Under the pieces are notes generated by a model. The model saw only the letters and a program-made list of their open reading frames with translations, ran no database searches and was not told the DNA's origin. 64,000 nt of DNA from an uncultured Candidatus Rokubacteria bacterium (GTDB lineage Bacteria > Methylomirabilota > Methylomirabilia > Rokubacteriales > DASRDR01). Each line of letters begins with the position of its first letter. Within the stretch, counting starts at the first letter, position 1. The stretch lies in assembly GCA_963805625.1 (NCBI GenBank), contig CAWDVE010000021.1, positions 320,001 through 384,000 on the forward strand, given 5' to 3'. The position numbers were made by a program, and so were the translations under genes. This document shows positions 1,291-21,149 of this stretch, piece by piece.

Positions 1291-1291
1291 T

Positions 1292-3448: not shown

Positions 3449-3896
3449 CGTCGCGCTCCGTCCAGCGAACGATCAACGCCTGAGCGGACACGCAGATCTG
3501 GCCGGAGCCACGCCTCAGGCAGGAGGACGGACCGCGTAACCCGGCCCGGGAGACGCCTGCCGTGATACCGGCGCGGGGCTCCACCGAGCTCAGCGTCCGA
3601 AGAGCCGGGGCGTCCCGCCGAACACGGCGACGAACTCGAGTCCGTCCCGCACCAGAACATCCGCTCCGCGATGCTCATCGACCTTCGATCGAGAGGCGGC
3701 GCCTCGGGCAGCACCCGGCATCACCATGTCGCGGTCGTTCACCAAGATGACGACCTCGCTATGTCGGCCACGCGTTGCAGCGTCTGAGCGTCATCGACGC
3801 ACGGCTCTGGCGAGGGAAGGCCACGTGCCCTCCAGGCGGCCGTAGAAATCTGATTGGTGTTCGACCTTCACGGCGAGGTGCAAGGCCGCCCGGGCC

Positions 3897-4361: not shown

Positions 4362-4793
4362 CTGTCGTCTCCCCTCCCGCACGCGCGGGTTACGCACAGC
4401 CTCGCCAATTGGAAGCACAGTCGCACGCGCTGCCTTGAGGATCATGCAAGACCGATGCCGCACCAGCCCGCGGGGTGAGATATCACACTCGCCTGGACAC
4501 GGCTGTCGGATCGGTGGTTTCTGCGTCGATTCACGGCAGCCGAGACTGTGTCCGGAATCCCGCTGGGGTGCCCCGGCCACGGGATGGTGCGGCTGTGCCC
4601 CAGCCGCCAGGCGATCGGCCACGCTCTTGATCTGGTCGTTCAGGCCCACCACTCCTGGATCACCACGATGCTCCGTGCGCCGGCCGCCGAGAGCACACGC
4701 CTTGCCCCGCCGCATCGGCCCTCTCGAGCGTCGTCGCGACGAGGACTTCCCGTCGCCGGTCGGGGTGAAGCCGGCGCGCTAGCAGACCTCTGA

Positions 4794-4970
4794 CTCCACG
4801 ACCTCCGGCATATGCTCGCGTCTCGGCTGACCATGTCCAGCGTGGATATCCTGACGGTCAACGAGCTCCTCGGCCACAAGACACCCGCGACGACCTTCGA
4901 TACAGCCACCTTTCGCCGGGACACCAGCGGGACGCGGTGGAGCGACTCGTGGCCGTACGTACCCACCTGA
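4794..4970 (+). pseudogene. Tyrosine recombinase/integrase C-terminal remnant
   Basis: LHDLRHMLASRLTMSSVDILTVNELLGHKT, then after a frameshift LRYSHLSPGHQRDAVERL; contains HxLRH, LGH and the catalytic Tyr. Not in the ORF track. Confidence 0.85.
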
Positions 4971-4982
4971 TGATTCCGTTCA

Positions 4983-5216
4983 GGCATCTACACGAGAGAG
5001 GACTCGCTGGCTGTCCCACGCGGGCCCATTGACGCGGTATTTCCCCTTCCGGACTTCAGAGCGCGCTTGCTGCATCAAGATGTCGCTCAGGTCACCTACA
5101 ACAGCGCCGTCACGTATGACGGAGTGGTTCAGCACGCTCGACGCAGCTCGATATGGTCACACACTCCGAACGGGTGGGTACGAAGATTTCACCAGGGCAC
5201 ACCGTATGACGCTTAA
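4983..5216 (+). pseudogene. 5'-truncated DUF4440/NTF2-like protein
   Basis: GIYTREDSL...DVAQVTYNS...ARRSSIWSHTPNGWVRRFHQGTPYDA*; no start codon. Confidence 0.65.
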
Positions 5217-5601
5217 CAGGTGCGCCGGAGCAAGCTGGTGCCGGGAGGGGGCCTCCATGCCCCGAAGCCCACCAGGTTCCTCGTCCAACCGGATCGGCAC
5301 TGCCGGACCGTCACGGCCGGGATCCTGGTCGTCGCTTCCTTGGCGGCCGGCGCCGCCGCGTCGTAACGATCACGATCAGTCCACCTTCAGCTCGACCAAC
5401 TCGTTCACGAGGCGCGGCAACTCCTCCACCTCGCCATCCGCATGGAGCGCCGGGCTGGGTCGCCCGCTCGAGATTGCGGCCAGCGGTGCGGCGACCGTCT
5501 TGCCGGCACCGAGCGACAGCCCCCGTCGGGATCTTTTGCAGTTTGTTACTGTTCTGGGGATGACACTTGCCAGATGCTTGAAATCTTTGGGGCGCGCTGC
5601 C

Positions 5602-5617
5602 TGGCACGAGGCGTGCT
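5602..5617 (+). promoter_or_regulatory. Candidate sigma54 promoter
   Basis: TGGCACGAGGCGTGCT has a perfect -24 TGGCAC and GG-N10-GC spacing; TGT-N10-ACA lies about 40 bp upstream. Confidence 0.6.
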
Positions 5618-5653
5618 TCCTCTTGACTGACAGATTCCGACAGCAGCTGAGCC

Positions 5654-5799
5654 ATGAGGAGCGCCCCGCCTCGTGTTGACTTCGATCACCCCAGCCCTGC
5701 GACCCCCGTCAGCGTCCCGGAATCGACCACGCTCGCGCTGCTCTCGGCGGGCGCCGCGGCCGTGGCACTCGGGGCGCATGCTGGTTCCGCCGCAAGTAG
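5654..5799 (+). pseudogene. Remnant reduced to a PEP-CTERM-like sorting tail
   Basis: MRSAPPRVDFDHPSPATPVSVPESTTLALLSAGAAAVALG, then after a frameshift ACWFRRK*. Confidence 0.55.
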
Positions 5800-5856
5800 T
5801 CCCGGCCCCGCGCGGGGTGCCTGAGAAGGGAGCGAGCTGCGGACGGGGCTACCGCC

Positions 5857-5884
5857 GCCGGGGGTGCTAGTGTGGCCTTCGCTC
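5857..5884 (+). repeat. Left copy of a direct repeat flanking the PEP-CTERM gene
   Basis: GGGGTGCTAGTGTGGCCTTCGCTC matches the 6629-6652 copy at 22 of 24 nt. Confidence 0.75.
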
Positions 5885-5929
5885 TGCCAAGCGTGCTCGG
5901 CAGCACACCTCAAAGAGGAGAAAACAAAA

Positions 5930-6568
5930 GTGAGCCGTTTTGTCTTGGCCATCGCGGTTATTTGCTTGACACTCAGCGCGACCGCACATGCAACTGTCTT
6001 CCGCTTCGACACTGACCCGTTCGCCGGATCAACCGCATTGACAACACCAGGACGACAAATCGTCGGCGGGGAGACTTTTATCACCTTTGACATTGCAACG
6101 GACATCTTTTCGCTGGAATCGACTGTATTCGGTGTGGGAAGCTCAGTCCTATTCGTAAACGATTTGGCTGCCAATCTGCCAACTGGCGGCGTGAACGTGA
6201 TCGTGTTGCAGACTTTTGACAACGATGCCGATCCGACAACGCCGTTCGCCGCCGGTAACGCCGCAAATTTGATTGCGGACCAAATTACATCGCCGGGCCC
6301 AGGGTTCTTCATTTATTTCAACCAAAATCTCGACCTGCCCCGTCTGGTGTTTTCTACCGATCTGGACGACAATACCGCCGACTTGAAGATCCTCTTTCGC
6401 ATGACAAACCTGACCGCTCAAGGTGGCCGTGACGCAATCCCCACGTTCACTGAGGCGAACTTCGAAATCACGACAGTCCCTGAACCATCCACCCTGCTAA
6501 TGGTGACGACGGCTGGCGCATCCCTGGCCTGTCGCTACGCGTGGCGGCGCAGGCGGACGCGGGGTTGA
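5930..6568 (+). CDS. PEP-CTERM sorting domain protein
   Basis: GAGGAG RBS and GTG start; signal peptide ending AHA; C-terminal VPEPSTLLMV-hydrophobic-WRRRR. Visibly lower GC than its flanks. Confidence 0.92.
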   Translation: MSRFVLAIAVICLTLSATAHATVFRFDTDPFAGSTALTTPGRQIVGGETFITFDIATDIFSLESTVFGVGSSVLFVNDLAANLPTGGVNVIVLQTFDNDADPTTPFAAGNAANLIADQITSPGPGFFIYFNQNLDLPRLVFSTDLDDNTADLKILFRMTNLTAQGGRDAIPTFTEANFEITTVPEPSTLLMVTTAGASLACRYAWRRRRTRG

Positions 6569-6625
6569 ACTTCTCCGAACGATCTGTGAATCCAACGCGG
6601 CACACTTGAACGCGGCCGCCGTGGA

Positions 6626-6652
6626 GCCGGGGTGCTAGTGTTACCTTCGCTC
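6626..6652 (+). repeat. Right copy of the direct repeat flanking the PEP-CTERM gene
   Basis: GCCGGGGTGCTAGTGTTACCTTCGCTC. Confidence 0.75.
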
Positions 6653-6699
6653 GAAAGAAGAGAGTGAGGCGAGGGCTAAAGAGGGAGAAAGCGTAAGAG

Positions 6700-6790
6700 A
6701 GAGCTTAGTCGGAGACGCACTCCTGCGATTCGGATTGGCTCCCCCGTGCGGAAGTTGCGCCCGCCGTCGCGCCTGAGGAGCGCGTAGAGC
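6700..6790 (-). pseudogene. Possible HU/IHF fragment
   Basis: RRDGGRNFRTGEPIRIAG resembles the GRNPxTGExI arm motif; very short. Confidence 0.4.
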
Positions 6791-6899
6791 CCCTTGTATG
6801 CTGAGCTGTTGCGGGTTCGCAGGGTCAGCAATCGGTTGGCCTGGAAGCTCGACTCCTGGACCGTGACTGATTCCGCCACCTCGCCGCGCACCAGCGGAT

Positions 6900-7549
6900 G
6901 TAGCCGCCGAGGCGAGCCGGGCCGCTTCCCCTTCCGCGACGAGCGGCCGGTCCTCAGGCACCGGCAAGGCGTCGAGGCTCCGCGCGATGGCCGCCGACCA
7001 GGCGGCGCACGCGGGCCGGTGCGCCTCGGGGATCCCGAGGAGGTCGCCGATGATCGCGCGTGAGAGCGGCTCGGCCAGGTCGGCCACCACGTCCATCCAG
7101 TCGGCCGCCGCCACGCGCTTCAGCAGCACGTCGACGTGGGACTGGACGCGCGGACGGTGCACCTCGACGGCGCGCGGCGTGAAGGCGCGGCTCACCGTGT
7201 CGCGGAGCCGCGTGTGGTGCGGCGGGTCGCGGAAGAGCATCGACTGCCGGTGGCCGCCGGTCGCCGGGCAGCTGGCGAGCGTGAGGCCGGCGCCGGCGCT
7301 GGTCGCCGCCGACCCGCCGCCCATCCCGAAGTAACGCTCGAACCCTTCGCGCCCGAACCGTTGGTCGCAGCGGACCGCCGCCACGTCCGCGTGGCGCGTG
7401 AGGACCCAGAGGCCACCGGTGTCCGGCGGACCGGGGCCGTGGCGTTGAGGCGCGTGTAGCGCGGATACGGGTCGGTGAAGAGCCGCGGGGGCGGGCGGGC
7501 CGAGGAGGCCGTCTGGCTGCCGGGGCGCGTCGAGCGATGGGCGAGTCAT
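6900..7549 (-). pseudogene. Cytochrome P450, N-terminal half only
   Basis: DPYPRY, a frameshift, then WVLTRHADV...SMLFRDPPHHTRLR..VSRAFTPRAV...DVVADLAEPL...DLLGIP; no heme-binding Cys motif. Confidence 0.85.
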
Positions 7550-7663
7550 GCCCGGGGGAGAGGGCAACCGGGGTGCCAGCGCGGCCTCGTCGGCGGGCCG
7601 CGTGTCAATCGGGCTGCCGTGATGCGGCCCTGCCCGGCGCATCGCCCGCCAGCCGCCGCCGGC

Positions 7664-7731
7664 GAATCCGCTCCGAATCCGCACGGAATCCGCTCCGGAG
7701 CGGATTGGGGAGCGGATCACGGAGCGGATTC
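7664..7731. repeat. 3+3 inverted iteron-like array
   Basis: GAATCCGCWCS at 7664, 7675 and 7686, then inverted GGAGCGGATY at 7697, 7709 and 7721. Confidence 0.85.
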
Positions 7732-7913
7732 CGGGCCCGGCCGCGATACGGGACGTGGGCGCCCCAGGCCGCCCGGCGTTCGCGGCGCCGCGACGCAAGC
7801 TCGCGCCGGGACGCACGTGGGGCTGCCGCGTGCCGCGGTCGTCCGGGCGCCGATCGGGCCACGCCCCCGAGTGTCCGCCCGGATGGCGCGGCTCTTGCCC
7901 GGCTCCGTCCCCC

Positions 7914-10016
7914 ATGACGCGCGACCCGGTGACGCTGCCCGCCGTCCTCGCCGAGCTCCGGGGCGTCCAGCGCGCCGGCGCCGGCTGGAGCGCCTTCTGC
8001 CCCGCCCACGAGGACCGGCAGAAGCGCAGCCTGTCGGTCGCGGAGCGGGACGGCCGCATTCTGTTCAAGTGCTTCGCCGGCTGTCCGGTCGACCGCATCG
8101 CGCACGCGCTCGGGCTCGAGATCTCGGCGCTCTTCGCCGCCGGGAGCGGCGGCGCGCATCGACCCGCGCGGCGTCTCGTGGCTCGGTACCAGTACCGCGA
8201 CGAGCGCGGCACGCTCCTCTACGAGGTCTGCCGGTTCGAGCCGAAGGACTTCCGGCCCCGGCGGCCGGACGGACGGGGCGGCTCGGTCTGGGGCCTCGGC
8301 GACGTGCGGCGGGTGTGCTACCGGCTCCCGGACTTCGTGGAGCACGAGCGCGTCTTCTGGGTCGAGGGGGAGAAGGACGTCGAGCGGCTGTGGGCGCTCG
8401 GTCTGCCCGCGACGACGACTCAGGGCGGCGCCCGGAGCTTCCGGCGGGAGTACGCCCGGCAGCTCGCCGATGCGGCGGTCCGCGAGGTCGTCGTCATCCC
8501 CGACGCGGACGCCGCCGGCCACCGGTACGCCGCGGAGGTGGCGGCCGCCGCGGGCGCAGCTGGGCTGACCGTCCGCCGGCTCGAGCTCCCCGGCCTGCCC
8601 GAGCACGGCGACGTGAGCGACTGGCTCCAGGCGGGCCACACGGCGGACGAGCTCCGCGCCCTCGCCGACGCGGCGCCGGCGTGGGACGGAGCGGCGTCAA
8701 GAGACGGATCGTGTGCGCCGGTCGACGGGATCCCGATGGGTGTCGCGAGGCCGATCTCCGGCGCCGCGGGGGCGAGCGATGCGCCCGAGCGCATCGCCGA
8801 GGGCGAGGACGTCCGCATCCGCTGGCCGGGCCCGCCGGCGCTCGAGGTGCTCGCCGTCGCGCCCCACGAGTCCGGCGACGGGATCCACGCGGAGGTGACG
8901 GTCAGCCTCGCGGGCGCCGTGCTGTCGTGGGGACGGTTGAACCTCGTGTCCACCGTGATGCGCGAGGGCCTGGTGAAGAAGCTCCGGGAGACGGCGCCCG
9001 AGGTGCCGTGGCGGGAGCGGCTCGAGCTCGCCTGCCGGCTGATCGCCGAGCAGCTCCGGACCGGGGCGCCCCTCGTCGCCCTCCGCCCGGCGCCCCGCGC
9101 CGGCGGCCGCCGGGACCTGGTCGACGGCATCCTGCCCCTCGGCGAGACGTCGCTCGTCTACGCCGACGGCGACACCGGGAAGGGCTGGGTCGCGCTGCTC
9201 CTGGCGGTCGCCGTCGCGACCGGGCGGGCCTTCCCGCATCTCCGCCCGCTCCGGGACGACGTCACGACGGCCTATCTCGACTGGGAGACCACGGAAGAGG
9301 AGGTGGCCGAGCGCGTCGACGCGATCTGCCGCGGCCTCGGCGTCACCCTGCCGCCGGGCGCGATCCTCTACCGCCCGATGTACCGCGCGCTCGCCGACGA
9401 GGCGTCGCGGCTCCGCGCCGATCTCGCCCGGCACGGCGTCGGCTTCGTGATCGTCGACAGCTTCGCCCCGGCGGCGGGGGTCGAGCCCGAGAGCGCCGAC
9501 AGCACGATCCGCACCATGAACGCCCTGCGGAGCTTCACCGGCACCACACGCCTCGTCCTGGCGCACGTCAGCAAGGCCGCCGCCGACCAGCTGAGCGGCG
9601 CCGCGCGCCCGTACGGGTCCGTGTTCGTCCGCAACCTCGCGCGCTCGGCCTGGGAGCTCCGCCGCGCCGAGGAGGCCGGAGGCGACGAGCTCCTCCTCGC
9701 CGCCTACCACCGGAAGGACAACGGCGGGTGCCGGACGCCCGCGTTCGCCTTGCGGCTCCGCTTCGATCCCGACGGCGCAGTGTCGGTCGCGGACGCCGAC
9801 CTGGCGGACGCGCCCGACCTCCTCGCCCGCACGAGCGTCGCCAAGCGCGTCACCGTCGCCCTCGCGGCCGGGGCTCTCACCGTCCCCGAGCTCGCCGCCG
9901 AGGTCGCGACGTCCAAGGCCACAGTGGGCCGCACCGTGCGGCGACTCCGCGACGAAGGCCGCGTCGTCCTCGTGGACGGCGTCCGGCCCTGCCGGTGGGC
10001 GCTCGCCAGCCGATGA
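7914..10016 (+). CDS. Primase-helicase fusion of mobile-element type: Zn-binding, TOPRIM, RecA-fold/AAA_25 ATPase and C-terminal HTH
   Basis: CPAHED...KCFAGC; VEGEKD and IPDADAAG (TOPRIM); ADGDTGKG (Walker A); YLDWE; VIVDS (Walker B); VLAHVSK; LTVPELAAEVATSKATVGRTVRRL (HTH). Start could be further upstream. Confidence 0.85.
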   Translation: MTRDPVTLPAVLAELRGVQRAGAGWSAFCPAHEDRQKRSLSVAERDGRILFKCFAGCPVDRIAHALGLEISALFAAGSGGAHRPARRLVARYQYRDERGTLLYEVCRFEPKDFRPRRPDGRGGSVWGLGDVRRVCYRLPDFVEHERVFWVEGEKDVERLWALGLPATTTQGGARSFRREYARQLADAAVREVVVIPDADAAGHRYAAEVAAAAGAAGLTVRRLELPGLPEHGDVSDWLQAGHTADELRALADAAPAWDGAASRDGSCAPVDGIPMGVARPISGAAGASDAPERIAEGEDVRIRWPGPPALEVLAVAPHESGDGIHAEVTVSLAGAVLSWGRLNLVSTVMREGLVKKLRETAPEVPWRERLELACRLIAEQLRTGAPLVALRPAPRAGGRRDLVDGILPLGETSLVYADGDTGKGWVALLLAVAVATGRAFPHLRPLRDDVTTAYLDWETTEEEVAERVDAICRGLGVTLPPGAILYRPMYRALADEASRLRADLARHGVGFVIVDSFAPAAGVEPESADSTIRTMNALRSFTGTTRLVLAHVSKAAADQLSGAARPYGSVFVRNLARSAWELRRAEEAGGDELLLAAYHRKDNGGCRTPAFALRLRFDPDGAVSVADADLADAPDLLARTSVAKRVTVALAAGALTVPELAAEVATSKATVGRTVRRLRDEGRVVLVDGVRPCRWALASR

Positions 10017-10081
10017 GCGGGGGCAACCCGAGCCCCATGAGTGCCGGCACCCCGCACATGTTCGCCGGATCGTCTCCGGCC

Positions 10082-10208
10082 TGTCCGCCGAGCTGTCCGC
10101 CCGGACATCCGGATCGCACGTCCGGTTCGCGAGTACCGGGACCCATTCGTGGTCCCGTACGAACCGGACGGACAAGTTCTTTCCTATGGGGTGTCCGCTT
10201 GTCCGCTT
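10082..10208. repeat. Cluster of TGTCCG/CGGACA motifs, candidate replication origin
   Basis: Direct and inverted copies just after the primase stop, including CGGACGGACA-agttctttcctatgggg-TGTCCGCTTGTCCG. Confidence 0.5.
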
Positions 10209-10403
10209 CGGGCGGCAACAGCCGCTCGATCTGGTCTCGGCCGGCCCGCATCGGGGGACTCGAGCCGATCAGGGTGTCGATGGCACCCACATCGGCCGTG
10301 TGCGGCACTGAGGCGTCCGAGTCGTCTAGCCGGTGAGGTACGTGGGTCATCGGGACTCCCCTTCGCGGCTGGCAATCAGCCTTTGATAGACGAATCGGGA
10401 ATA

Positions 10404-10676
10404 GTGGCGCGGGAATTCGTGTGGGAGTCGGATGTCGTGTTCCGGGTCTACGACAAGGAAGACGTTTCGCTGCGGCTCGACGCCGTAGCAGGCCGGCTCG
10501 ATGAGATTCTGGTCGACGCGGTGCTGTCCGCGACTTCGAAGTCCTCGAAGTCCTCGATCACTTCGCGATCGGACCTCGCCGCCCGGTCAGACCTGGCGGC
10601 GCGCTCGGATCTGGCCGCGCGCTCCGATCTCGCGGCCCGGTCGGACCTGACTGCGCGACACCGATTAAGGAGCTGA
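10404..10676 (+). CDS. Small protein with five C-terminal RSDL(A/T)A repeats
   Basis: GTG start in the frame of ORF 10041..10676; repeats at 10566-10655 use different synonymous codons. Confidence 0.7.
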   Translation: MAREFVWESDVVFRVYDKEDVSLRLDAVAGRLDEILVDAVLSATSKSSKSSITSRSDLAARSDLAARSDLAARSDLAARSDLTARHRLRS

Positions 10677-10761
10677 GCTGGTTGGGCAGACGCTTCCCGC
10701 CGGTGGACGGGTGCCCGAGCTCCTCGGGGCGCCCGTGCCGGCGGGTGGGACTCCGATGTCC

Positions 10762-12303
10762 CTAGTTGGCGCCGGCGACGAACACCCCGCCCAGGAAGCC
10801 CGGCGGGTAGGCGAAGAAGCCCTCGAGGGGACCCGCGATCGGGGTGCCCGTGGCGCCGCTGAAGACCCGCACGTGGGGTCCACCGCCCGGCCCCGGGGTC
10901 GTGATGATGTCGGCTCGAGCGTCGCCGGTGAGGTCGCCAGCGGCCGCGACGAAGACGCCACCCGTGAAGCGCGGATCGTAGGCGAAGAAGCTATGCACCT
11001 CCACCGGGGCACCGACGCGCAGGGCGGCGCCGTCGAAGACCTGGACGTGGGGTCCACCGCCCGGCCCGGGCCCGGTGATGAGGTCCGGCACGCCGTCGCC
11101 GGTCACATCCCCGGTCGCCACGTGCACGCCGCCGGTGAAGGCCGGATCATAGGCGAAGAACTCGGCGAGCGACGTGCCCGTGGCCCCATCGAGGACCCGT
11201 ACGTGGGGCCCGCCGCCCGGTCCGGGGCTCATGATGAGTTCCGCTCGATCGTCGTTGGTCAAGTCGGCGGCCGCGACGAAGACGCCCCCCGTGAAGCGCC
11301 GATCGTAGGCGAAGAAGCTTCCGAGGGGACCCGGGATCGGGGCACCCGTGGCCCCGCTGAAGACCTGCACATGCGGGCCGCCGCCGGGCCCGGCGCCGGT
11401 GATGATGTCGGCTCGACCGTCGCCGGTGAGGTCGCCAGCGGCCACGAAGACGCCGCCCATGAAGCCCGGATCGTAGGCGAAGAAGCTATACACCTCCACC
11501 GGGACACCGACCCGCAGGGCGGCGCCGTCGAAGACCTTGACGTGGGGTCCACCGCCCGGCCCGGGCCCGGTGATGACGTCCGGCACGCCGTCGCCAGTCA
11601 CATCCCCGGTCGCCACGTGCACGCCGCCGGTGAACGCCGGATCATAGGCGAAGAACTCGGCGAGCGACGTGCCCGTGGCCGCATCGAGCAGGCGCACGTG
11701 GGGTCCACCGCGCGGCCCGGCACCGGTGACCATCAGCGGTCGGGGCGCCACTGACGCGGGGGTCGAAAAGATGGCGGTGACGATGGTGGTGTCGGCGGTG
11801 ACGGTGCAGGTGGGGCTGGTTCCCACACAACCGCCGCCGCCCCAGCCAGAGAAGACGAAACCCGCGCCGGGAGTGGCAGCCAGGGTGACGCTGGCACCGC
11901 TCGGGTCGATGTGGATGCAGTCGTCGCCGCAGTTGACCGCGTTGGCGGGCGTGATGCTGGTGACGGTGCCGGTGCCGATCTTCGCGATCATGAGCAGAGC
12001 GGCGGCCGTGTGGCAGGCCTCGTTGCTGGGGGCGGAGCTACCTGTAGCATTGTAGGCGCGAACGCGATAGCAGTAACCTTGCCCTGCAGTCGCCGTGGTG
12101 TCGACGTAGCTGGTGACGTCGGCGCCGACGGTCGCGATCTCGGCGTGGGCGCCCGACGGGATGAGGCGGCGCTCGATCCGAGAGCCCAACGCGTTCGTGG
12201 CATTGTTGGTCCAGCTCAGGCTGAGCTGGCCGGCGAGCACGGGGCTGCCGACGAGGATGCTCGCCACGATCGCGGCAAACTGGATCCGGGTGAAGCGAGT
12301 CAT
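10762..12303 (-). CDS. Secreted protein with FN3 domain, InlB-B-like repeat and six FG-GAP-like repeats
   Basis: Signal peptide; LSWTNN...YCYRVRAYN...SAPSN; VTLAATPGAGFVFSGWGGG; six [10 protein letters not shown]...FFAY units. Confidence 0.88.
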   Translation of the reverse strand: MTRFTRIQFAAIVASILVGSPVLAGQLSLSWTNNATNALGSRIERRLIPSGAHAEIATVGADVTSYVDTTATAGQGYCYRVRAYNATGSSAPSNEACHTAAALLMIAKIGTGTVTSITPANAVNCGDDCIHIDPSGASVTLAATPGAGFVFSGWGGGGCVGTSPTCTVTADTTIVTAIFSTPASVAPRPLMVTGAGPRGGPHVRLLDAATGTSLAEFFAYDPAFTGGVHVATGDVTGDGVPDVITGPGPGGGPHVKVFDGAALRVGVPVEVYSFFAYDPGFMGGVFVAAGDLTGDGRADIITGAGPGGGPHVQVFSGATGAPIPGPLGSFFAYDRRFTGGVFVAAADLTNDDRAELIMSPGPGGGPHVRVLDGATGTSLAEFFAYDPAFTGGVHVATGDVTGDGVPDLITGPGPGGGPHVQVFDGAALRVGAPVEVHSFFAYDPRFTGGVFVAAAGDLTGDARADIITTPGPGGGPHVRVFSGATGTPIAGPLEGFFAYPPGFLGGVFVAGAN

Positions 12304-12323
12304 GTGGACGCCCGTGCAGGCAG

Positions 12324-12340
12324 TGCAATGTGTGTACCCG
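12324..12340 (-). promoter_or_regulatory. Candidate sigma54 promoter
   Basis: Minus strand CGGGTACACACATTGCA (GG-N10-GC, TTGCA), preceded by an AT-rich stretch. Confidence 0.55.
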
Positions 12341-12634
12341 TTTCGCCAAGAAGCGAGCATGAAAGCTAAGTAACGTGAACTTCTGCTATTATTTGCAATC
12401 CTGTTCGGACCCGAGATCCCTACCGCCACGGGTGGCCCTGACAAAACTGGGGACTGGAGGTGCCAAAAGACGGCCTGCCCCCCGAGAGACGGGACCCCCG
12501 TGTCCAGCCTCACGGTGGTCTCGTGGCGCTCCTCGACTCAGACCTCACCTCGGGAACGGGAAGCGGTCGCTCCTCGTCAGCGTTCCCTCTCCTCGCTCGC
12601 GGTCGCCCGGCGTGGGGCTACCGGTGGCCGGGTT

Positions 12635-15364
12635 TCAGTAGGCGAAGAACCCGGGGGTGACCGCGGCGCCAGCCGAGGTGAACGGAATGACGTGAGGGCC
12701 GCCGCCGGGGCCCGGCCCCGTGATGATCTCGGCGGCGACGCCGCCAGTGACGTCCCCGGCGGCCACGCGGACGCCCGCGGTGAAGAGAGGCGAATAGGCA
12801 AAGAAGCCGCCGCCAAGCGGGATGCCGGTTCCGTAGAAGGCACGGGCGTGGGGGCCGCCGCCAGGACCGGGGCCCGTGATGATCTCGGCAACGACGCCGT
12901 CGCCGGTGACGTCCCCGGCCGCGACGAACACCCCGCCGGTGAAGGCGGGGTCGTAGGCGAAGAACTCGGCGACGCTCAGCAAGGCGGCACCGGTGAACCC
13001 CAGCACGCGGACGTGGGGGCCGCCGCCCGGGCCGGGGCCGGTGACGATCTCGGCGCGGCCGTCTCCGTCGACGTCGCCGACGGCCACCTGGACGCCGCCG
13101 GTGAAGCCACCGTAGACGAGGGCGTCGAAAACGGGGAGGACGCCACCGGGGGAAGCCGGCGCGTAGCGGAGGATGCGGAGGTGGGAGCCGCCGCCGGCGC
13201 CGGCGCCGGTGACGATGTTGACGATGCCGGGGCCCTCCACGGGCCCGCAGGCGACGAAGACGCCGCCCGTGAAGGCCGGGTCGTACGCGAAGAAGCTGGC
13301 CAGTTCGCCCACCACGCTGCCGGCGGGATCCAGCTTGAAGACCCTTACATGGGGCCCACCGCCGGGGCCCGGGGCGGTGACGATCTCGTCCCGACCGTCG
13401 CCGTCGAAGTCGCAGCCGGAGGCGACGCGGACGCCGCCGGTGAAGGCCGGGGCGTAGGCGAAGAACCCGGGCCCAATCGGGACACCGTTCGCGTCGAAGA
13501 TCTTCACATGAGGGCCGCCGCCCGCGCCGGCCCCGGTGATGATCTCGGCGGGGACGCCGGGTGCGTCGATCCGGCCGGTGGCCACGTAGACGCCGCCCGT
13601 GAAGATCGGGAGGGGCGTGGCGTCGACGGCGTCAAGCGCGTCGGCGCGGCCGAATCCGGAGTCGGCGTCGAAGCCGGCCGGCCCCAGGTCGACCGCGGCG
13701 CCGGTGAGGATCCCGCGAACCTCGGGCGGGGTCAGCCCGGGGTTCTTCGAGAGAGCGAGCGCGGCGATGGCCGCGACGTGAGGAGCGGCCGCGGAGGTAC
13801 CGAAGAAGGGGTTGAAGCCGGGGCGGGTGGTGCTCACCCCGTCGATGCCCGTCAGGTCCGGCTTCGGCCGCTCCTCGGCCGCCGGGAACACGGTCGTCGA
13901 CGGTCCAGCCGAGCTGAACGGCTCGATGACCGTCGGGGTACCGGAGAACGCGGCGGCCACGGCGAGCACCTCGGGGACGGCCGGATGCCCGAAGATGCTG
14001 CCGGCGGGGACGGCGAACTCCTGGAGCGTGCAGCGCAGGCAGTACAGCTTGAGGGGCCGTGCCGCCCCCGAGACGCGCGTGATCTGGATGTCGCCGGCAC
14101 AGCTCGGCCCTGGCGGGCACACGAGCAGTATGCTCTCGATCGGGTCGTCGTTGCCGTCCTGGACGAACTGTGAGCAGCTGAGCCCCACGCCCGGGGTGGT
14201 ACGCACGCAGAGATCGTAATTGTCGCCGGCCGCGCCGAAGGGGTTCGCCCACTGGAGGACGACGAAGGCACTGGCGCCGCCGGGGGCGGTGAAGCGCATG
14301 AGCGTGTCGCCGCCGCCGAAATCGTGCCGCGTGCCGGACACCTCCGGGTCGAACACGCCCGGGGTGAACAGCGCGGCCGCGTAGTGCCCGGTGCGATCGT
14401 TACCGGCGGCGGACACCCGGAGGACGCTGTTGCCCACGGCCCGGTCGTTCAGGGCGATTAGCCCGTCCTGGAAGTAGGGCTCACCGTAGAACCCGAGGTC
14501 GTCGACGATGATCCGCGCCCCGGCGGCCGTCAGGTTGTTCACGGCGTTGACAAAGGTGAGCGCACTCGCAATGCCGGTCGCGAAGAGGAGCGGCGCGCCG
14601 GGCGCGCAGTCGTGGACGATCTCCAGCATCGCGGTGCCCTCGTCCCCGGGAGCGTCGGCGAGGACCGTGACGCCCGCGGGCAGGTCCCCGGTGGCCTGGG
14701 AGGCGGCGAGGCCGGCGACGCCGTCCGAGATCACCCCGACTGCGGCCCCGCTGCCGGTGAAGCCCAGGGCGCGTGCCTGGTCGCAGCGATGGATCGCGTC
14801 GCCCTGGGAGGTGACCGAGCCGGTCCTCGTCGTGCCGTAGCTCGGCGGCCGGACCTTCAGGACGACCGGCTCTCCGGCCAGCGCCTCCAGGTTCTCGATG
14901 GGGATCCAGCCCTCGACAACCCGGAAGTCGGCGTTGACGATCTCGATGTCCAGCCCGTGGCCCCGGAGCTGCATCAGCGTCCCGTCGTCCGCGTCGGCGA
15001 CGGTCACGTCGACCTGTACTCGCCCCGCGTCGTCCACGCGTTGGGCCGCCGACGAGAAGCGCCCGGCGGCGCCCATCGCGGCCGCGTTCTGGGAGGTGAT
15101 GCCGAGCGACTGGAGGTCGGCGATGAGCGCCCGGAGCCGTGACACGATCTTCTCCGAGGCGGCACTGGTCACGGGGCCGGATGAGCTGAGCTGGCCGACC
15201 GCCCGAAAGTCCTGCGCCCCGGCGATCGGGGGTGCCAGGGCGAGCAGGACCACGGCCAAGAGCGCCGCGAGACCGGCGCGGCGGCTGGCCCCCGCGCGTA
15301 TTGCGCACCGCAGCGCGGCACGGCCGGCGGTGGTCGACGAGATCCGACGGGCACTGACTCGCAC
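12635..15364 (-). CDS. Secreted S8/S53-like serine peptidase with C-terminal FG-GAP-like repeats
   Basis: GVISDG, DEGTAMLEIVHD, SAAGN, KPDLTGIDG and FFGTSAAAPH motifs; six GPHV-type repeats; GGAGGGAG RBS before GTG 15364. Confidence 0.88.
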   Translation of the reverse strand: MRVSARRISSTTAGRAALRCAIRAGASRRAGLAALLAVVLLALAPPIAGAQDFRAVGQLSSSGPVTSAASEKIVSRLRALIADLQSLGITSQNAAAMGAAGRFSSAAQRVDDAGRVQVDVTVADADDGTLMQLRGHGLDIEIVNADFRVVEGWIPIENLEALAGEPVVLKVRPPSYGTTRTGSVTSQGDAIHRCDQARALGFTGSGAAVGVISDGVAGLAASQATGDLPAGVTVLADAPGDEGTAMLEIVHDCAPGAPLLFATGIASALTFVNAVNNLTAAGARIIVDDLGFYGEPYFQDGLIALNDRAVGNSVLRVSAAGNDRTGHYAAALFTPGVFDPEVSGTRHDFGGGDTLMRFTAPGGASAFVVLQWANPFGAAGDNYDLCVRTTPGVGLSCSQFVQDGNDDPIESILLVCPPGPSCAGDIQITRVSGAARPLKLYCLRCTLQEFAVPAGSIFGHPAVPEVLAVAAAFSGTPTVIEPFSSAGPSTTVFPAAEERPKPDLTGIDGVSTTRPGFNPFFGTSAAAPHVAAIAALALSKNPGLTPPEVRGILTGAAVDLGPAGFDADSGFGRADALDAVDATPLPIFTGGVYVATGRIDAPGVPAEIITGAGAGGGPHVKIFDANGVPIGPGFFAYAPAFTGGVRVASGCDFDGDGRDEIVTAPGPGGGPHVRVFKLDPAGSVVGELASFFAYDPAFTGGVFVACGPVEGPGIVNIVTGAGAGGGSHLRILRYAPASPGGVLPVFDALVYGGFTGGVQVAVGDVDGDGRAEIVTGPGPGGGPHVRVLGFTGAALLSVAEFFAYDPAFTGGVFVAAGDVTGDGVVAEIITGPGPGGGPHARAFYGTGIPLGGGFFAYSPLFTAGVRVAAGDVTGGVAAEIITGPGPGGGPHVIPFTSAGAAVTPGFFAY

Positions 15365-15450
15365 GGCTCCCTCCCTGGTCCAAAGGCGTGGGGCGCGGAG
15401 TCCGGCAGCGACCTCCCGACATTGGCCCCTGCAGCGGAAGAGCCCCCAGA

Positions 15451-15887
15451 TCATTTCACCGGCTCGGCGATGTAGTTCAGGTCCTTCCGTTCGCCTTCCG
15501 CTTCTTGTCTGTCTACGAGTTCTGGGACAATCCGACCAACGAACACCCCATCTGGATCTTCAAGCGGACGTACCGCTCCTGGCCCGGCTCAAGCACAAAG
15601 GTTAGCTTCTTCTCCGTGGCGGCGGTGACCTCGTAGGTCCCGGAGTCCCGGTCGACGAAGTAGGAACCATGAGGCGTAGCGGTACCGGCCTTCTCTCCGT
15701 TGAGCTCGATGTCGGGCCGCACCGCGGCACCCATGGCGCTCGACCGGTAGAAATAGATCCGACCCTTCTGCGGGGCCAGCGACGGGAAGGTCGAGGCGAC
15801 CATCTAGTACTTCGGCCCGGTGGCGCAACCGGAGAGCAGCAGCACCATCAGCACAGTGGTTCCCCGAGCTGCCGTGTTGATCATCAT
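15451..15887 (-). pseudogene. DUF2846-like lipoprotein pseudogene
   Basis: Lipobox LSGC; in-frame TAG at 15804-15806; GRIYFYR...; frameshift near 15548 into GVFVGRIVPELVD. Confidence 0.75.
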
Positions 15888-16480: not shown

Positions 16481-17686
16481 ATGGCCTCGGGGCCCAAAGC
16501 GACGGAAACGCCTGCCGTGACGCGCGGAGCGGATGTCGAGTCAGCGGGGCTTGTGGAGCGGGATCTCTCATCTCCTCGTGGCCAGGGTGCGGGCCGGCCG
16601 CGCCTTCGTGTGCTCCGGGATGAACCCGGCGCGCGCGGCCGGCTGATCGCGCGAATCCTCACCGGCGCCTGGCGGATGGCGCCGCCACCGCCCGACTTCA
16701 CGGCCGACGAGTTGGAGGCTGCCGCACCGCTCCTCCATAAGGGCGGATCAGGTGCGCTGGTCTGGTGGCGAATCCGTGGCACACCGCTGGCCGAGACCCC
16801 GACTGGCCAGGGGTTCCGCAACGCCTATCGGCTTTGCACTCTCGAGGCGGAGATCCACGCGATCGAGATGGTCCGGGTGCTACAGCGACTCGACGCGGCG
16901 GGCGTAGAGACCCTCGTCGCTAAGGGTTGGGTGGCCGCGCGCCACTATCCCGAGGTCGGGCTCCGCCAGTATACCGACCTGGACCTGTTGGTCCGACCCG
17001 CGCACGTAGTGGCGGCCCGGACCGCTCTGGCGAGCCTCGCAGGTCTCGAGTATCTGGTGGACCTCCACGAGGGGGCGAGGCACCTGGACGCGCTCAGTTT
17101 CGATGACCTGGCGGCGCGGGCGGAGCACGTCAAGGTCGGTGAACGGGACGTGTGCGTTGTCGGTCCGGAGGACCACCTCCGGGTGCTTGCCGTTCACGCC
17201 CTGCGCCATGGCGTCTTCCGCCCTCTTTGGCTGGTCGACCTCGCCGTGGCGATGGAGGCCCGGCCGACGGACTTCGACTGGACCCGCTGTCTCGGGCCTG
17301 ACCCGCGGCGCGCGGACTGGGTGGCCTGCGCCCTCGGGCTGTCCCACCGCCTACTCGGGGCGGACCTCGACAGTGAGTTGGTGGAGGCGCGCGCGCGGCG
17401 ACTGCCAGACTGGCTGCTTCGGGCCGTCCTGCGGGCCTGGGATCGCTGCGAGGACCCCAGTCTGCACGAACCCTTCGCGTGGGTGCTCGCACGGGAGCTG
17501 CGGCGACCGGCCCGTATCGTCGCGGAGATCCGGCGCCGCTGGGACCGCCCGATCCAGGCGACGGTCGCGGTGGGCGGCCCGTTCAACCGGCTCCCCCGCT
17601 GGCCGTTCCGGCTGGCGGCGATCGTCCGCCACGCGCCCGGGATCGGACGGGTGCTCAGGCAGACGATCGGCGCCAGGGCACGGTGA
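16481..17686 (+). CDS. Nucleotidyltransferase family protein (NTP_transf_5-like)
   Basis: LVAKGW...YPEVGLRQYTDLDLLV...VDLH...HALRHG...WLVDL; start uncertain (16364-16610). Confidence 0.85.
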   Translation: MASGPKATETPAVTRGADVESAGLVERDLSSPRGQGAGRPRLRVLRDEPGARGRLIARILTGAWRMAPPPPDFTADELEAAAPLLHKGGSGALVWWRIRGTPLAETPTGQGFRNAYRLCTLEAEIHAIEMVRVLQRLDAAGVETLVAKGWVAARHYPEVGLRQYTDLDLLVRPAHVVAARTALASLAGLEYLVDLHEGARHLDALSFDDLAARAEHVKVGERDVCVVGPEDHLRVLAVHALRHGVFRPLWLVDLAVAMEARPTDFDWTRCLGPDPRRADWVACALGLSHRLLGADLDSELVEARARRLPDWLLRAVLRAWDRCEDPSLHEPFAWVLARELRRPARIVAEIRRRWDRPIQATVAVGGPFNRLPRWPFRLAAIVRHAPGIGRVLRQTIGARAR

Positions 17687-17744
17687 TCTCCGCCGAGGCA
17701 GGTGGTTCGACGGGCCGTCGCCATGGTCGCGGAGGTCGACGGGG

Positions 17745-18734
17745 TCAGGGCGACGCTGGGCGCTCGAGATCGAGGCTCCTGAGGAGCGCGTCCGCCGTCT
17801 GCCGCGCCTCCCCACGGACGACGCGGAGGATCGGGGCCCTCAGGACAACCTGCTGGATCGCCACGAGGGCTCGCGGAGGGTCCCGCCGGACAGAGACGGT
17901 GTTGGCCAGGAGCTCGAGCGCTCCTTCGGCGGCCGAGAGTCGCCGCGGACGCCAGCGCGCCCCGGCCCGGTAACGGCTTACGACTACGAGGCCCACCGGA
18001 AGCGACCGGGTTCCGGTGCGTCCGCCGAGCGCCGCGGCGGACCAGCGCGATCGGTCCAACCCGCGGTCCCCGCGAAGCGAGAGGCGTCGCGCGTACGGGT
18101 AGACGCGCCCGCGCAGGTCGAGCACGGCGTACTCGTCCGAGTAGTACGTCGCCCCCGCCCGGACCAGGTCTGCGACGAGCCTGCTCTTGCCGCTCATGCT
18201 GGGTCCGGGCAGGAGGATCGCCCGCCCGCGCCAGCCCACAACGCCGGCATGCACGAAGACGCGCCGCGGCGCTCGCTCGGCGACGTAGAGTTGGAGGTCG
18301 GACTCGAGGCTGTCAAGGATGCCTTCCAGGGTCCGGTCCCGGGTCACGGGCGCCGTGTCACCCCAGAGGCGATGCCACCCCTCGCGGCGCGGCACGACCA
18401 GCGAGTACAGGCGATCGACGATCCGCGCGTCGGCCAGGCGCCAGCCGGGCGGTAGCCGGTCGCGCAGCGACGCCAAGACCGACAGTTCGTTCGCACGGAC
18501 CCCGATCCGCAGCCCGTAGGCCGTGATGGCGAAACCCAGCCGACACGCGGGCGGCCCCCAGCGTCCCGAACGTGGAGTCCCGGGCTTCGGGGCGACGCAG
18601 AGATCCTTGAGCCCGCGGCCGATACGGGGAAGCTCCGCGGCCAGGCAGACGATCGAGGCGAACCCCCTGCCCTGGCGGACGGCAAGGCAGGGTCCGGAAC
18701 ACGATGCCGGCGCAGGCGCCGGCTGACCCCTCAC
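17745..18734 (-). CDS. HPr kinase-like P-loop protein
   Basis: FVHAGVV...LLPGPSMSGKS...YYSDEYAVLD; GTG start overlaps the upstream stop (GTGA), though the true start may be later. Confidence 0.82.
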   Translation of the reverse strand: MRGQPAPAPASCSGPCLAVRQGRGFASIVCLAAELPRIGRGLKDLCVAPKPGTPRSGRWGPPACRLGFAITAYGLRIGVRANELSVLASLRDRLPPGWRLADARIVDRLYSLVVPRREGWHRLWGDTAPVTRDRTLEGILDSLESDLQLYVAERAPRRVFVHAGVVGWRGRAILLPGPSMSGKSRLVADLVRAGATYYSDEYAVLDLRGRVYPYARRLSLRGDRGLDRSRWSAAALGGRTGTRSLPVGLVVVSRYRAGARWRPRRLSAAEGALELLANTVSVRRDPPRALVAIQQVVLRAPILRVVRGEARQTADALLRSLDLERPASP

Positions 18735-20287
18735 GTCCCTGGCGGGTGGGCCCGCGGGCTCTCGATGATCGGCGCGACGCCGGCCAGCGCGAGGACGTTC
18801 CGCGCCCCGATTCCGATCGTCGAGGCGACCCGGCCCTCAGCGTCTATCAGCACGGCCGACGGCGTTGCGCGGGCCTCGAAGACCTTGCTCACCTTCAAGC
18901 CCTCGTCGAGGACGACGGTCGAGCGGAAGCCCAGAGCGCGGTTTGCCTCGACCGATCCCGAGGAGACCACGAGCAGACGGGGGGCGCCGCGGGGGGGCTC
19001 GGCCTCCCACCGGTGAAGATCCTCGGCCATCCGCTGGCAATACGAGCAGTCCGGATGCCAGAAGACGAGAAGGGTGTCCCGTCCGCGGTAGTTGCGGAGG
19101 TCGATCATCCGGTTGTCGAGGTCGGGAAGCGTGAATGGCGGCGCGAGCTGGCCGGGGCGGGGCGGCCCTCCGGCCAGCACCGGCAGCGATCCGTGGCTCT
19201 CCCGGCCGTTCGTCCGCGCCGGGAACGGGGCACCAGGTGAGGCGACGGCGTGGGCAACAAGGGCGCGGATGGCAGCGTCCCCGAAGACGACCGGGCCTGC
19301 GATCCGCCCGGTTCGCCCGATGAGGACCGCGCCGGGAGTCCACTGGGCGCCGTAGGCGTCGGCAACTTCACTCCGCGCCTGGAGGAGCATGGCCTCGGAC
19401 GACATCCCACCGAACTTTGTCCGGTTCTCGTCGGTACTCCCGGTCGTGACCAGCGCCAGCGTGAACGCCTCCGCGTGCTCGCGCTGCCAGCGGGCGATCT
19501 CGGGCGCGAGGGCAGTGCAGGGATCACAGGCCGGCCCCACGAAGAGAAGCAGGACCGGCCGGCCAAGTCCAAGGAGGGTGCCGAGCGAGCGTGTCTCACC
19601 GTCGCCAGCGGGCAGGGAGAAGGCCGGCGCCAGCGCGCCCACCGGGAGGGCACCCACCGTGAGGCCCGTGTCGAGTTGTCTGCCCTCACTGGGCGCGCCG
19701 ATTCCCTGTTCCACCCGTGCCTCGATCGCGTCGAGCCGGGTCAGGACCCGCGCCTGCTGGATGAGCAGGCGCAGCACCATCCCGACGACCGTGCCAAGAA
19801 CCGCCAGCGCGGCGAGGCCCAGGACGGCCAGGGTGCGCTCGGCGGGCGGCAGCGCACCGAGCCAGCCCACGACGCTCAGCCCGGAGTCGTTCCATCCGGC
19901 ACCGACAACGAACACGGCCAGCGCGCCAAGAACAACGTTCCGGAGCAAGGTCGGCCAGCCCACTGGGGCCGAGCGCAGCTGGCCAAAGCAGCGGCACTCG
20001 GGCCGCTGGCCCCGCGCGAGACTCAGCGCAATGGCGATCGTGAACGCCACGAGAAGGCCGAGGGCCCCGAGCCCACCCCACCACGCGGAGGTGCGCGGAA
20101 CAAGGGCGGTGGCGACAGACAGCTCTGCGGCCGGGAGAGCCACCGCGAGGGGTCCCACGAGCCAGGCGGGCAACCCGAATCCGGCAAGGCCCTCGCGGGC
20201 GCCGGTCCGGTCCAGGAGCTTGGTGACGCCGGCAACCGTGAACACGCCGGCGAGCGCGAGTCGGGCACTGAGGAGGACCGCGTCCAT
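18731..20287 (-). CDS. MauE/DoxX membrane domain fused to two thioredoxin-like (MauD/TlpA-like) domains
   Basis: TM helices with CRCFG and LLRNVVL; APAFSL...CDPC; APPFTL...FWHPDCSYC...ATPSAVLID. Confidence 0.9.
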   Translation of the reverse strand: MDAVLLSARLALAGVFTVAGVTKLLDRTGAREGLAGFGLPAWLVGPLAVALPAAELSVATALVPRTSAWWGGLGALGLLVAFTIAIALSLARGQRPECRCFGQLRSAPVGWPTLLRNVVLGALAVFVVGAGWNDSGLSVVGWLGALPPAERTLAVLGLAALAVLGTVVGMVLRLLIQQARVLTRLDAIEARVEQGIGAPSEGRQLDTGLTVGALPVGALAPAFSLPAGDGETRSLGTLLGLGRPVLLLFVGPACDPCTALAPEIARWQREHAEAFTLALVTTGSTDENRTKFGGMSSEAMLLQARSEVADAYGAQWTPGAVLIGRTGRIAGPVVFGDAAIRALVAHAVASPGAPFPARTNGRESHGSLPVLAGGPPRPGQLAPPFTLPDLDNRMIDLRNYRGRDTLLVFWHPDCSYCQRMAEDLHRWEAEPPRGAPRLLVVSSGSVEANRALGFRSTVVLDEGLKVSKVFEARATPSAVLIDAEGRVASTIGIGARNVLALAGVAPIIESPRAHPPGT

Positions 20288-20435
20288 CTGGGACTCTACC
20301 TCACACCGATTCCGCTGGGCGCAAGACCGGGGACCTCTGGCGCGTGGGTGTGACGCAGGGCCTGCCGGGGGACCGGAGCCGCCGATCCCCCGGCCCCCTC
20401 AACCCGCTGCCGCTGACCGAACTCGAGCAGCGCTC

Positions 20436-21149
20436 CTAGCGGCTGCCGACCGTTGGCACTCCCGGCGCTGGCAGCGCGGAACCGGCGCCGCCGGGGCACG
20501 GTCCTACACACACACCGGCGGCACCACAGCAGGTGTTCACGACGCAGGCCTGGCCGGATGGGCAGCCTGCACTCGCGGTGCACGCCGTGAGGCCTGCGCA
20601 GGGCGTCGCCCCGTCAACGCAGAATCCCGACCCCTCGGAGGTCGTGGCGCACACGCAAGTTCCCCCGGGACCGCACGTCTGGAAGTTCGTGCAGGTTCTC
20701 CCTGCGCAGGCCGCCGTGGTCTGCGCCGCCGCGGGATGGGGCGCGACCACCGAGGTGACGGCGGGGAGGATCAGGGCTCCGGCGGCCACGCTCAGCCCCA
20801 ACCGCGCTAGCACCTGCCGCCGGGACACCGCCCGCTGCATCGGCAGCCGCTCCTGGAGCAGCTGTGCCCGGTCCAGCTCGGCGAGGGCGAGCCACACGAC
20901 CTCCTCGTTGGCCCCGGGCAGCTCCGGCTGGAGCCGACTCGTGAGCTCCTGGACGCTCGCCCGCCCGTCGCATTCCCGCCACACGAGGAGGGCAGGGCGA
21001 TTTAGCGCGTGCGCCCGGTGCTGATCGAGATCGTAGACCAGCACTTCGTCGGCCACGTCGCGGATGACCAACCCCTCATGTCGGGCCTGCGGTCGGAACG
21101 CCGCAGCCGACACCCACCCCCCTTGCGCCTCGGGTCTCCGTTGCTCCAT
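20436..21149 (-). CDS. PqqD/RRE domain fused to an internal Tat-like signal and a 14-Cys peptide (putative RiPP precursor)
   Basis: DEVLVYDLDQHRAHALNRPALLVWRECDG (PqqD); VSRRQVLARLGL...VVAPHPAAAQ; Cys/Thr/Gly-rich tail; GGAGG RBS before ATG 21149. Confidence 0.85.
   Translation of the reverse strand: MEQRRPEAQGGWVSAAAFRPQARHEGLVIRDVADEVLVYDLDQHRAHALNRPALLVWRECDGRASVQELTSRLQPELPGANEEVVWLALAELDRAQLLQERLPMQRAVSRRQVLARLGLSVAAGALILPAVTSVVAPHPAAAQTTAACAGRTCTNFQTCGPGGTCVCATTSEGSGFCVDGATPCAGLTACTASAGCPSGQACVVNTCCGAAGVCVGPCPGGAGSALPAPGVPTVGSR

Follow-up and report, generated by a model that had tools for sequence, protein, structure and literature searches.

A putative peptide-tailoring system with an RRE-fused twin-arginine precursor in an uncultured Rokubacteria genome and across bacterial phyla

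Background

The closest described counterparts of the system that is the subject of this article combine a recognition element (RRE) of RiPPs (peptides synthesized by ribosomes and modified post-translationally) with an HprK-like kinase and a nucleotidyltransferase. In one of them, the linear polyphosphorylated peptide (LPP) system of Paenibacillus alginolyticus (lppA/K/B/S/D/N), described in 2026, LppK polyphosphorylates Ser3 of the peptide, a residue that, counted from the leader motif, lies 15 positions after its Pro, whereas an S3T variant is not phosphorylated (PMC13381572). In the lasso peptides paeninodin and pseudomycoidin, the kinases PadeK and PsmK transfer phosphate to a Ser of the precursor; PsmN attaches one or two hexoses or nucleotidylates first (PMC9266682). 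Here we analyze a locus of this general kind in which the RRE is fused to the putative substrate, namely, the gene for the 237-amino-acid (aa) precursor P0001 and its neighbors in a 64,000-nt stretch (hereafter, the window) of contig CAWDVE010000021.1 (assembly GCA_963805625.1), from an uncultured Candidatus Rokubacteria bacterium.

Published work on recognition, oxidation and export bears on this locus as well. The RRE motif of lasso and LPP peptides is given as [Y/W]xxPx[L/V/I], and variation from YxxP to LxxP has been reported; in PMC12710340, the recognition sequence appears as W/Y/LxxP, and 21% of the PF05402 proteins are described as longer than a discrete RRE and unannotated. Two MauE proteins replace DsbB in Escherichia coli, with the CXC active site predicted to be periplasmic, and 8.2% of the MauEs are fusions with a thioredoxin partner (bioRxiv 10.64898/2026.03.05.709764). 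Class V substrates of the twin-arginine translocation (Tat) pathway, for example, FecR, have a folded domain in the cytoplasm followed by an internal signal that is not cleaved (PMC13673990); Tat also tolerates small unfolded substrates and exports cofactor-loaded proteins.

Results

P0001 is encoded on the minus strand by an open reading frame (ORF; 20436..21149) with profile matches, and a GGAGG precedes the ATG of this ORF. Residues 18-100 (20850..21098) match the PqqD family PF05402 at E 7e-5, with a borderline score of 23.5 bits against a cut-off of 23.4, and the AlphaFold2 (AF2) model of this part, three strands followed by three helices with a predicted local distance difference test score (pLDDT) above 90, has a clear RRE fold. 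The closest structures are lasso B1 proteins, both in Foldseek (E 2.4e-4, with TbiB1 among the matches) and in VIA, where 6jx3 aligns with Z 9.6 and a root-mean-square deviation (rmsd) of 2.4 over 82 residues. C-terminal to the RRE follow the twin-arginine motif SRRQVLA (residues 109-115, 20805..20825), a 20-residue hydrophobic stretch, the sequence AAA that forms a predicted signal peptidase I site, A-x-A (residues 140-142, 20724..20732), and a 95-aa core with exactly 14 Cys (20439..20723), all on the minus strand; the 15th Cys sits in the RRE. The calculated mass of the core is 8651.7 reduced and 8637.6 with seven disulfides. Another protein, P0289, lacks an RRE; its core, of the same type (49% identical), follows a Tat leader at the N-terminus that contains WVAPVI. 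An Atlas search gave no usable match for the Cys core of P0001; for P0289, it returned nothing beyond weak or unnamed clusters. A lipoprotein reading was rejected, given that no lipobox can be read in the sequence ahead of the first core Cys.

A family profile built from 17 sequences recovers 10,903 representatives at E<=1e-3, a number that may include discrete RREs, and 2,135 at 1e-30. Among named records, the fused gene is found in Blastocatellia, Gemmatimonadota, Methylomirabilota, Nitrospinota, Armatimonadota, Dehalococcoidia and one Clostridia bin; in the host phylum, 29 of 251 genomes match the profile, discrete RREs included. In a set of 166 sequences (the query, 17 first matches and 148 representatives), the RRE and the leader are conserved (R110 in 100%, R111 in 99%, P129 in 94%, P137 in 98%) but the cores are not, being hypervariable and sometimes tandemly duplicated. 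With six precursors unparsed and the second copy of the same genome set aside, the number of Cys is even in 150 of the 157 parsed cores (six odd, one without Cys), as it is in 105 of the 109 cores from loci (one odd, three without Cys). The spacing C-C-CC-C-C, which we take to be the cystine-knot framework, occurs in 31 of the 50 six-Cys cores. The second copy, on contig C2 (L001:8654-9091, 7881-8553), is an RRE-Tat precursor with an 8-Cys core, divergent to a MauE-thioredoxin-thioredoxin (MauE-Trx-Trx) copy that is frameshifted and internally deleted; within the 19.9 kb around this precursor, there is no kinase or nucleotidyltransferase match.

A second role, that of an internal Tat signal, is predicted for the leader. 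A TatFind-like rule (RR plus an uncharged hydrophobic stretch), used without its position limit, accepts 153 of the 166 precursors versus one of 119 control segments, and the genome encodes TatC. Because A-x-A is conserved, we infer that the precursor is cleaved: in the 147 of the 166 sequences that fit the anchoring pattern, Ala occupies position -3 in 61% and position -1 in 78%. In these 147 homologues, the residue 15 positions after the Pro (P+15) is Ser or Thr in 89%, versus 5-23% at the other positions from P+10 to P+23; in P0001, it is Thr144 (20718..20720, minus strand), residue +2 of the predicted mature peptide and the putative acceptor of a modification. An internal restart ahead of the signal is not favored: a Met lies at most 25 residues upstream of the RR in only 52 of the 166 sequences, M104 being the only one between RRE and RR in P0001.

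Within the h-region of the signal lies L126-x-x-P129-x-V131 (20757..20774, minus strand), a predicted RRE-binding motif to which conservation, the AF2 model and relatives with separate genes point. In the model made with 150 sequences, residues 131-134 become a strand (pLDDT ~66) that is absent with 17 sequences, and the predicted template modelling score rises from 0.48 to 0.64. Residues 15..137 of the model align to residues 137..1019 of the NisB-NisA leader chain (Z 8.0, rmsd 3.4, 95 aligned), where those above ~1000 should be the leader, given how the entry is titled and that NisB has 700+300 residues. The motif is predicted from the model to lie in the groove of the protein's own RRE.

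In the host phylum, we surveyed 15 of the 16 discrete-RRE matches, the remaining one belonging to an unpublished genome. A small ORF with the same leader was found in 12 of the 15 loci, none in two, and a different YxxPxI peptide in one. Among these 12 split precursors, RR or KR is present in 11, and F/Y/W three residues before the Pro likewise in 11, so that [FYW]xxPx[IVL] stands at the site of the P0001 motif; in the fused form, the residue at -3 to the Pro is aliphatic, with F in only 4%. In nine, the second residue after A-x-A, at P+15 or P+16, is Ser, and ten have a tail without Cys. Thus, the constant feature of the system is the leader and not the cysteines, and the Cys-rich peptide that a preliminary description of the locus, made from the window sequence, had put at its center does not define it. 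The split systems (L028, L204, L206-L213, L216, L217) consist of a discrete RRE, a kinase and/or a nucleotidyltransferase, and a 45-85 aa Tat-leader peptide with a mostly Cys-free, short, charged tail. In L215 (8261-8413), a 46-aa ORF with YEAPRI and no twin arginine, resembling precursors of the LPP/lasso type, lies between the discrete RRE and the kinase.

On the strand of the P0001 gene follow a 518-aa MauE-Trx-Trx fusion with five predicted membrane helices (18731..20287) and an HprK-like kinase (17745..18734), whose start overlaps the end of the fusion gene by four bases, GTGA; converging on them, 58 bases from the kinase end, is an NTP_transf_5 nucleotidyltransferase with a DxD motif (16481..17686, plus strand). 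This layout and the anatomy of the precursor are as the preliminary description gave them, and its PqqD, MauE and NTP_transf_5 assignments hold in profile searches (PF05402 as above; PF07291, E 1.6e-26; PF14907, E 4.1e-23). The kinase matches TIGR04352 (HprK_rel_A) at E 1.8e-14, far below the cut-off (53.5 versus 200 bits), and has no Pfam match. In 59 sequences, the Walker-A Lys and the Asp-Glu of the kinase are invariant, and the His is present in at least 90%; most homologues align only from residue 60-67, and one from residue 10. The ATG at 16481 is a doubtful start for the nucleotidyltransferase because homology begins only near nt 16620 and two RNA-library contigs from close strains have A>C at 16481; the GTG at 16610 is the likelier start, judging by the sequence.

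Linkage was counted in the best 78 of 562 confirmed loci, a sample biased to the query alignment, of which 37 span 20 kb. The kinase is present in 51 of the 78, the nucleotidyltransferase in 61, both in 47 and MauE-Trx in four; for the 37 loci of 20 kb, the respective numbers are 28, 32, 26 and one, with neither enzyme in three. The conserved unit is a trio of kinase, RRE-precursor and nucleotidyltransferase, to which MauE-Trx is an accessory. The association is not due to chance because the co-location of the two enzymes with the precursor recurs across phyla. In this respect, the expectation of the preliminary description is confirmed; of the four-gene hybrid pathway it proposed, the trio stands, whereas MauE-Trx is optional.

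All four genes are co-oriented in loci L124, L081, L100 and L179. In L124, the order on one strand is precursor, transferase, MauE-Trx and kinase, and L126 has the same order up to its end after MauE. These two loci, L124 and L126, hold the closest homologues of the MauE-Trx (64%) and the nucleotidyltransferase (53-56%) of the window, and, in a FastTree tree, the window nucleotidyltransferase falls into one clade with theirs (support 1.0); therefore, the convergent nucleotidyltransferase belongs to the gene set. Cores next to MauE-Trx are longer (median 66 versus 37 aa; at least 60 aa in 7 of 10 versus 2 of 99, some of the loci without MauE-Trx being short of full length).

A reverse search of 80 metagenome loci of MauE-Trx fusions, many of them short, found an RRE precursor in four; in 16 further loci, a strict filter identifies a Cys-rich ORF of the Tat type that lacks an RRE. 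A MauE-Trx fusion without an RRE-precursor match is also encoded in four more genomes of the host phylum, in two of which it is paired with an ORF of that kind. [quoted passage not shown] There is no PF02975 (MauA) match in P0001 or in the genome, control genomes being equally silent. The RRE-less, many-Cys Tat proteins beside MauE-Trx (L121:9299-10030, L123:9059-9517 and 16 loci among L124-L203) have a leader of the type FD.L...SRR.

In the MauE domain, K23, E55, C98, C100, F101 and G102, with the loop C98-R-C100-F-G, are invariant in 35 sequences and coincide with the residues named for DsbB-like MauE (K, E, CXC-F-G; bioRxiv 10.64898/2026.03.05.709764); the two thioredoxin-like domains carry CDPC and CSYC. 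A five-helix model puts the CXC loop and the Trx domains on the same side of the membrane. With helix boundaries placed by hand in the 112 aligned of 119 fusions, Lys plus Arg are on the CXC/Trx side in 112 of 112 (means 3.9, 4.1 and 2.6 versus 0, 0.3 and 0.7), and two mutually similar stand-alone MauEs show the opposite pattern, an N-terminus with 3-5 Lys/Arg and an acidic CXC loop. From these charges, we put at slightly under even the chance that the fusion oxidase is inverted, its CXC loop and Trx domains facing the cytoplasm, opposite to the tested MauEs. The genome encodes VKOR and has no DsbB match; a literature search found no paper on an inverted DsbB or VKOR.

Genes of polysaccharide biosynthesis are frequent companions: Wzc, Wza, WecA or Wzy are encoded in 19 of the 37 full loci versus ~1% of random windows of the host genome, a rough control, as these windows come from a different genome than the loci and kin are not independent. 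A C25 peptidase, a relative of the PorU sortase, is found in 18 of the 37 full loci and at a distance of at most 10 kb in 26 of the 78; in Blastocatellia (e.g., L099:5539-8871), it is often accompanied by TPR, Wzy, WecA or Wzc genes. Directly after the precursor, L025 (7469-9151) encodes a fusion of the kinase with a family 2 glycosyltransferase, and L026 (8354-9859) and L027 (8150-9787) encode fusions of it with a 2-oxoglutarate-Fe(II) oxygenase.

The precursor gene is partly covered by RNA-library contigs from four studies, one of which nearly spans it (785 nt, 23 differences); such contigs show neither transcription nor its level. Contigs of two studies stop at 20358 and 20360, near a 13-bp hairpin 3' of the gene (20364..20394, minus strand) that could weakly mark a transcript end (z -1.46, not significant). 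Across loci, hairpins with z < -2 follow 18 of 107 precursor genes versus 6 of 107 control positions (median z -0.39 versus -0.02), a weak difference from a crude shuffle. A promoter and terminator scan yielded one sigma-70-like site at 16401 (9 of 12 matches) and no terminator. A mobile-element remnant upstream of the nucleotidyltransferase was considered and rejected, with no Pfam match and no repeat in the genome. Elsewhere, positions 1-15500 of the window are island-like, with a DDE transposase fragment (810-1265), a 45-bp repeat array (2822-3027), a primase-AAA fusion (7755-10016) and two secreted FG-GAP repeat proteins (10762-15454), one with a subtilase domain. At 49094-57431, ~28 kb from the locus, co-oriented ORFs resemble a polysaccharide cluster, as judged by eye from N-terminal sequence.

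Discussion

The best reading of this system appears to be an exported, disulfide-rich, Ser/Thr-modified peptide. In the mechanism that we propose, and that we consider, as a whole, somewhat favored, the fused RRE would bind the LxxPxV motif of its own leader, which would double as the internal Tat signal; the neighboring kinase would phosphorylate Thr144, and the nucleotidyltransferase would then cap the phosphate, most likely with a sugar; MauE-Trx-Trx would form the seven disulfides of the core; and Tat and signal peptidase would free the 95-aa core outside the membrane, with the RRE staying inside. Because the RRE would cover the h-region of the signal, it might hold back export until the peptide is modified. 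The tailoring chemistry is modeled on LPP and pseudomycoidin; a sugar cap is favored because of the PsmN precedent, the glycosyltransferase-kinase fusion in L025 and the polysaccharide genes in about half of the full loci. The released peptide is probably a mini-protein of the surface or matrix with a link to exopolysaccharide biology.

Several observations weigh against this reading. Neither enzyme was detected in 13 of the 78 loci, some of which are short, and the link between MauE-Trx and core length comes from only three nucleotidyltransferase lineages. The leader segment of the model has a pLDDT of only 56-66, the consensus Phe is rare in the Tat motif of the family, and the Class V precedent, FecR, is uncleaved (PMC13673990). 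By sequence, the kinase has no solved relatives, and by profile, only P-loop noise (E 0.4-0.7); it has Asp-Glu where PadeK-type kinases have Asp-Asp. The acceptor is a Thr here and in 27% of the family, and Thr is what LppK rejects; in LPP, deletion of lppN had no detectable effect (PMC13381572). Three of the 12 split precursors lack Ser at the acceptor position, and no Wzc, Wza, WecA or Wzy match was found on the contig of the window.

The alternatives differ in how much of the pathway they would replace. A single step is at stake if MauE-Trx-Trx faces the periplasm and oxidizes the core after export, a variant compatible with the rest of the pathway, to which we give just over an even chance: the MauEs that replace DsbB in E. 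coli have a CXC site predicted to be periplasmic, Tat tolerates small unfolded substrates, and some of the Lys and Arg counted here are conserved structural residues, whereas the uniform charge bias of the fusions, the reverse pattern in the two stand-alone MauEs and the presence of VKOR in the genome speak for the other orientation. Considerably bolder, and in our estimate rather unlikely in its entirety, is a scenario in which the fused RRE, holding on to its own signal peptide, acts as a Tat proofreading chaperone until a phospho-sugar tag is in place at mature +2, an inverted MauE-Trx-Trx makes up to seven disulfides before export, and thousands of hypervariable knottin-like cores are made in this way in uncultured soil phyla. 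It is unlikely, to a slightly greater degree, that the product is an ordinary exported disulfide mini-protein, with the kinase and the nucleotidyltransferase acting elsewhere, on a surface-glycan intermediate or on the RRE itself. The polysaccharide genes and C25 peptidases in about half of the full loci and the precursors without either enzyme, including the second copy in the same genome, would fit such a role, but Ser/Thr is fixed at mature +2 across unrelated cores and in the Cys-free split precursors, the trio is retained in Gemmatimonadota loci without any match to Wzc, Wza, WecA or Wzy, and the related enzymes of LPP and paeninodin modify precursors.

The two remaining alternatives concern the core. 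An uncleaved, FecR-like membrane sensor, with the Cys-rich domain sensing outside and the winged-helix-like RRE signaling inside, would have a precedent in the uncleaved Class V Tat substrates, and winged-helix regulators are among the lower-ranked structural matches of the RRE. The best matches are RREs, though, the A-x-A site is conserved, RRE and leader also exist as separate genes, and the cores are hypervariable and sometimes tandemly duplicated, all of which makes a sensor improbable. We attach still less probability, very little indeed, to a metal carrier of the metallothionein type, held in reduced form by the thioredoxin domains and leaving the cell metal-loaded. The 14 Cys, the export of cofactor-loaded proteins by Tat, the resemblance of the Trx domains to ResA and a reductase role for MauE proposed in one study cited in the MauE preprint (bioRxiv 10.64898/2026.03.05.709764) could be accommodated by a carrier, in contrast to the near-strict even parity of Cys, their knottin-type spacing, the scarcity of His (fewer than one per 100 residues) and the oxidase activity of MauE in the tested cases.

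If the proposed mechanism is correct, the leaders that guide RRE-dependent tailoring include one that serves as a Tat signal too, and a single polypeptide combines enzyme adaptor and substrate. The analysis names a single testable residue for the little-understood HprK/NTP_transf_5 pair. MauE, which only recently emerged as a DsbB-like oxidase, would gain a natural client, and the topology predicted for the fusion is relevant to the site at which Tat substrates acquire their disulfides. The family would also be a large source of natural disulfide-rich scaffolds.

Comparison with known systems

The present system shares with LPP (PMC13381572) an RRE that occurs together with an HprK-like kinase and an NTP transferase but no lasso cyclase, a leader motif (xxPxV) whose Pro precedes the acceptor, near the N-terminus of the core, by 15 residues, cleavage of the signal-peptidase type (predicted here), variable cores and a frequent polysaccharide-locus setting. 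LPP, in contrast, is a system of Bacillota that comprises a discrete RRE together with an ABC exporter and a dedicated peptidase of the SipW type; in the present system, RRE and substrate form one protein with a twin-arginine leader and a Cys-rich core, and Thr is a possible acceptor. Of the LPP precursor motif YxxPxVLxHQxIxFETxxS, only xxPxV and the register of the Ser/Thr at P+15 are shared. No LppS-like peptidase or MsbA-like exporter turned up among the window ORFs or the recurrent neighbors, which were inspected without a dedicated profile search. Paeninodin (PadeK) and pseudomycoidin (PsmK, PsmN; PMC9266682) have the same three types of accessory proteins, and it is the lasso B1 proteins that the RRE resembles most in structure. 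These lasso peptides are, however, modified at a C-terminal Ser, unlike the N-terminal acceptor in the present cores, and the lasso-type kinase motif is H-K-D-D rather than H-K-D-E; no B2 peptidase or macrolactam cyclase is found in the locus or among recurrent neighbors, the only PF13471 match in the genome being on contig C16.

With DsbB-like MauE (bioRxiv 10.64898/2026.03.05.709764), the oxidase has in common the K, E and CXC-F-G residues, a fused thioredoxin and a Cys-rich client; it differs in the two Trx domains behind a fifth helix, in charges opposite to those of stand-alone MauE and in a putative client that does not appear to be MauA. FecR (PMC13673990) and the precursor both have an internal twin-arginine signal behind a folded cytoplasmic domain, but the FecR signal is uncleaved, whereas the precursor has a conserved A-x-A and an N-terminal domain predicted to be a peptide chaperone. 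The pairing of an HprK-related kinase with a PqqD-family protein recalls HPr-rel-A (TIGR04352, TIGR04353), from which the locus departs in the low kinase score and in the lack of a TIGR04353 match for P0001 at E 0.1.

The preliminary description had called the system undescribed. This has to be narrowed, as the enzyme logic is known from LPP and MauE as a DsbB-like oxidase is on record; what persists is the RRE/Tat-leader fusion, for which the accessible text of PMC12710340 names no RRE-precursor counterpart and our search of the literature, most subscription papers lying outside it, returned no description. Taken together, the comparisons suggest that the system works like LPP and paeninodin tailoring but is a member of neither; what it adds is that RRE and substrate are fused, that the leader is used as a putative Tat signal, and that the disulfide-rich cores come with an optional MauE-Trx-Trx, an enzyme whose orientation is possibly inverted.

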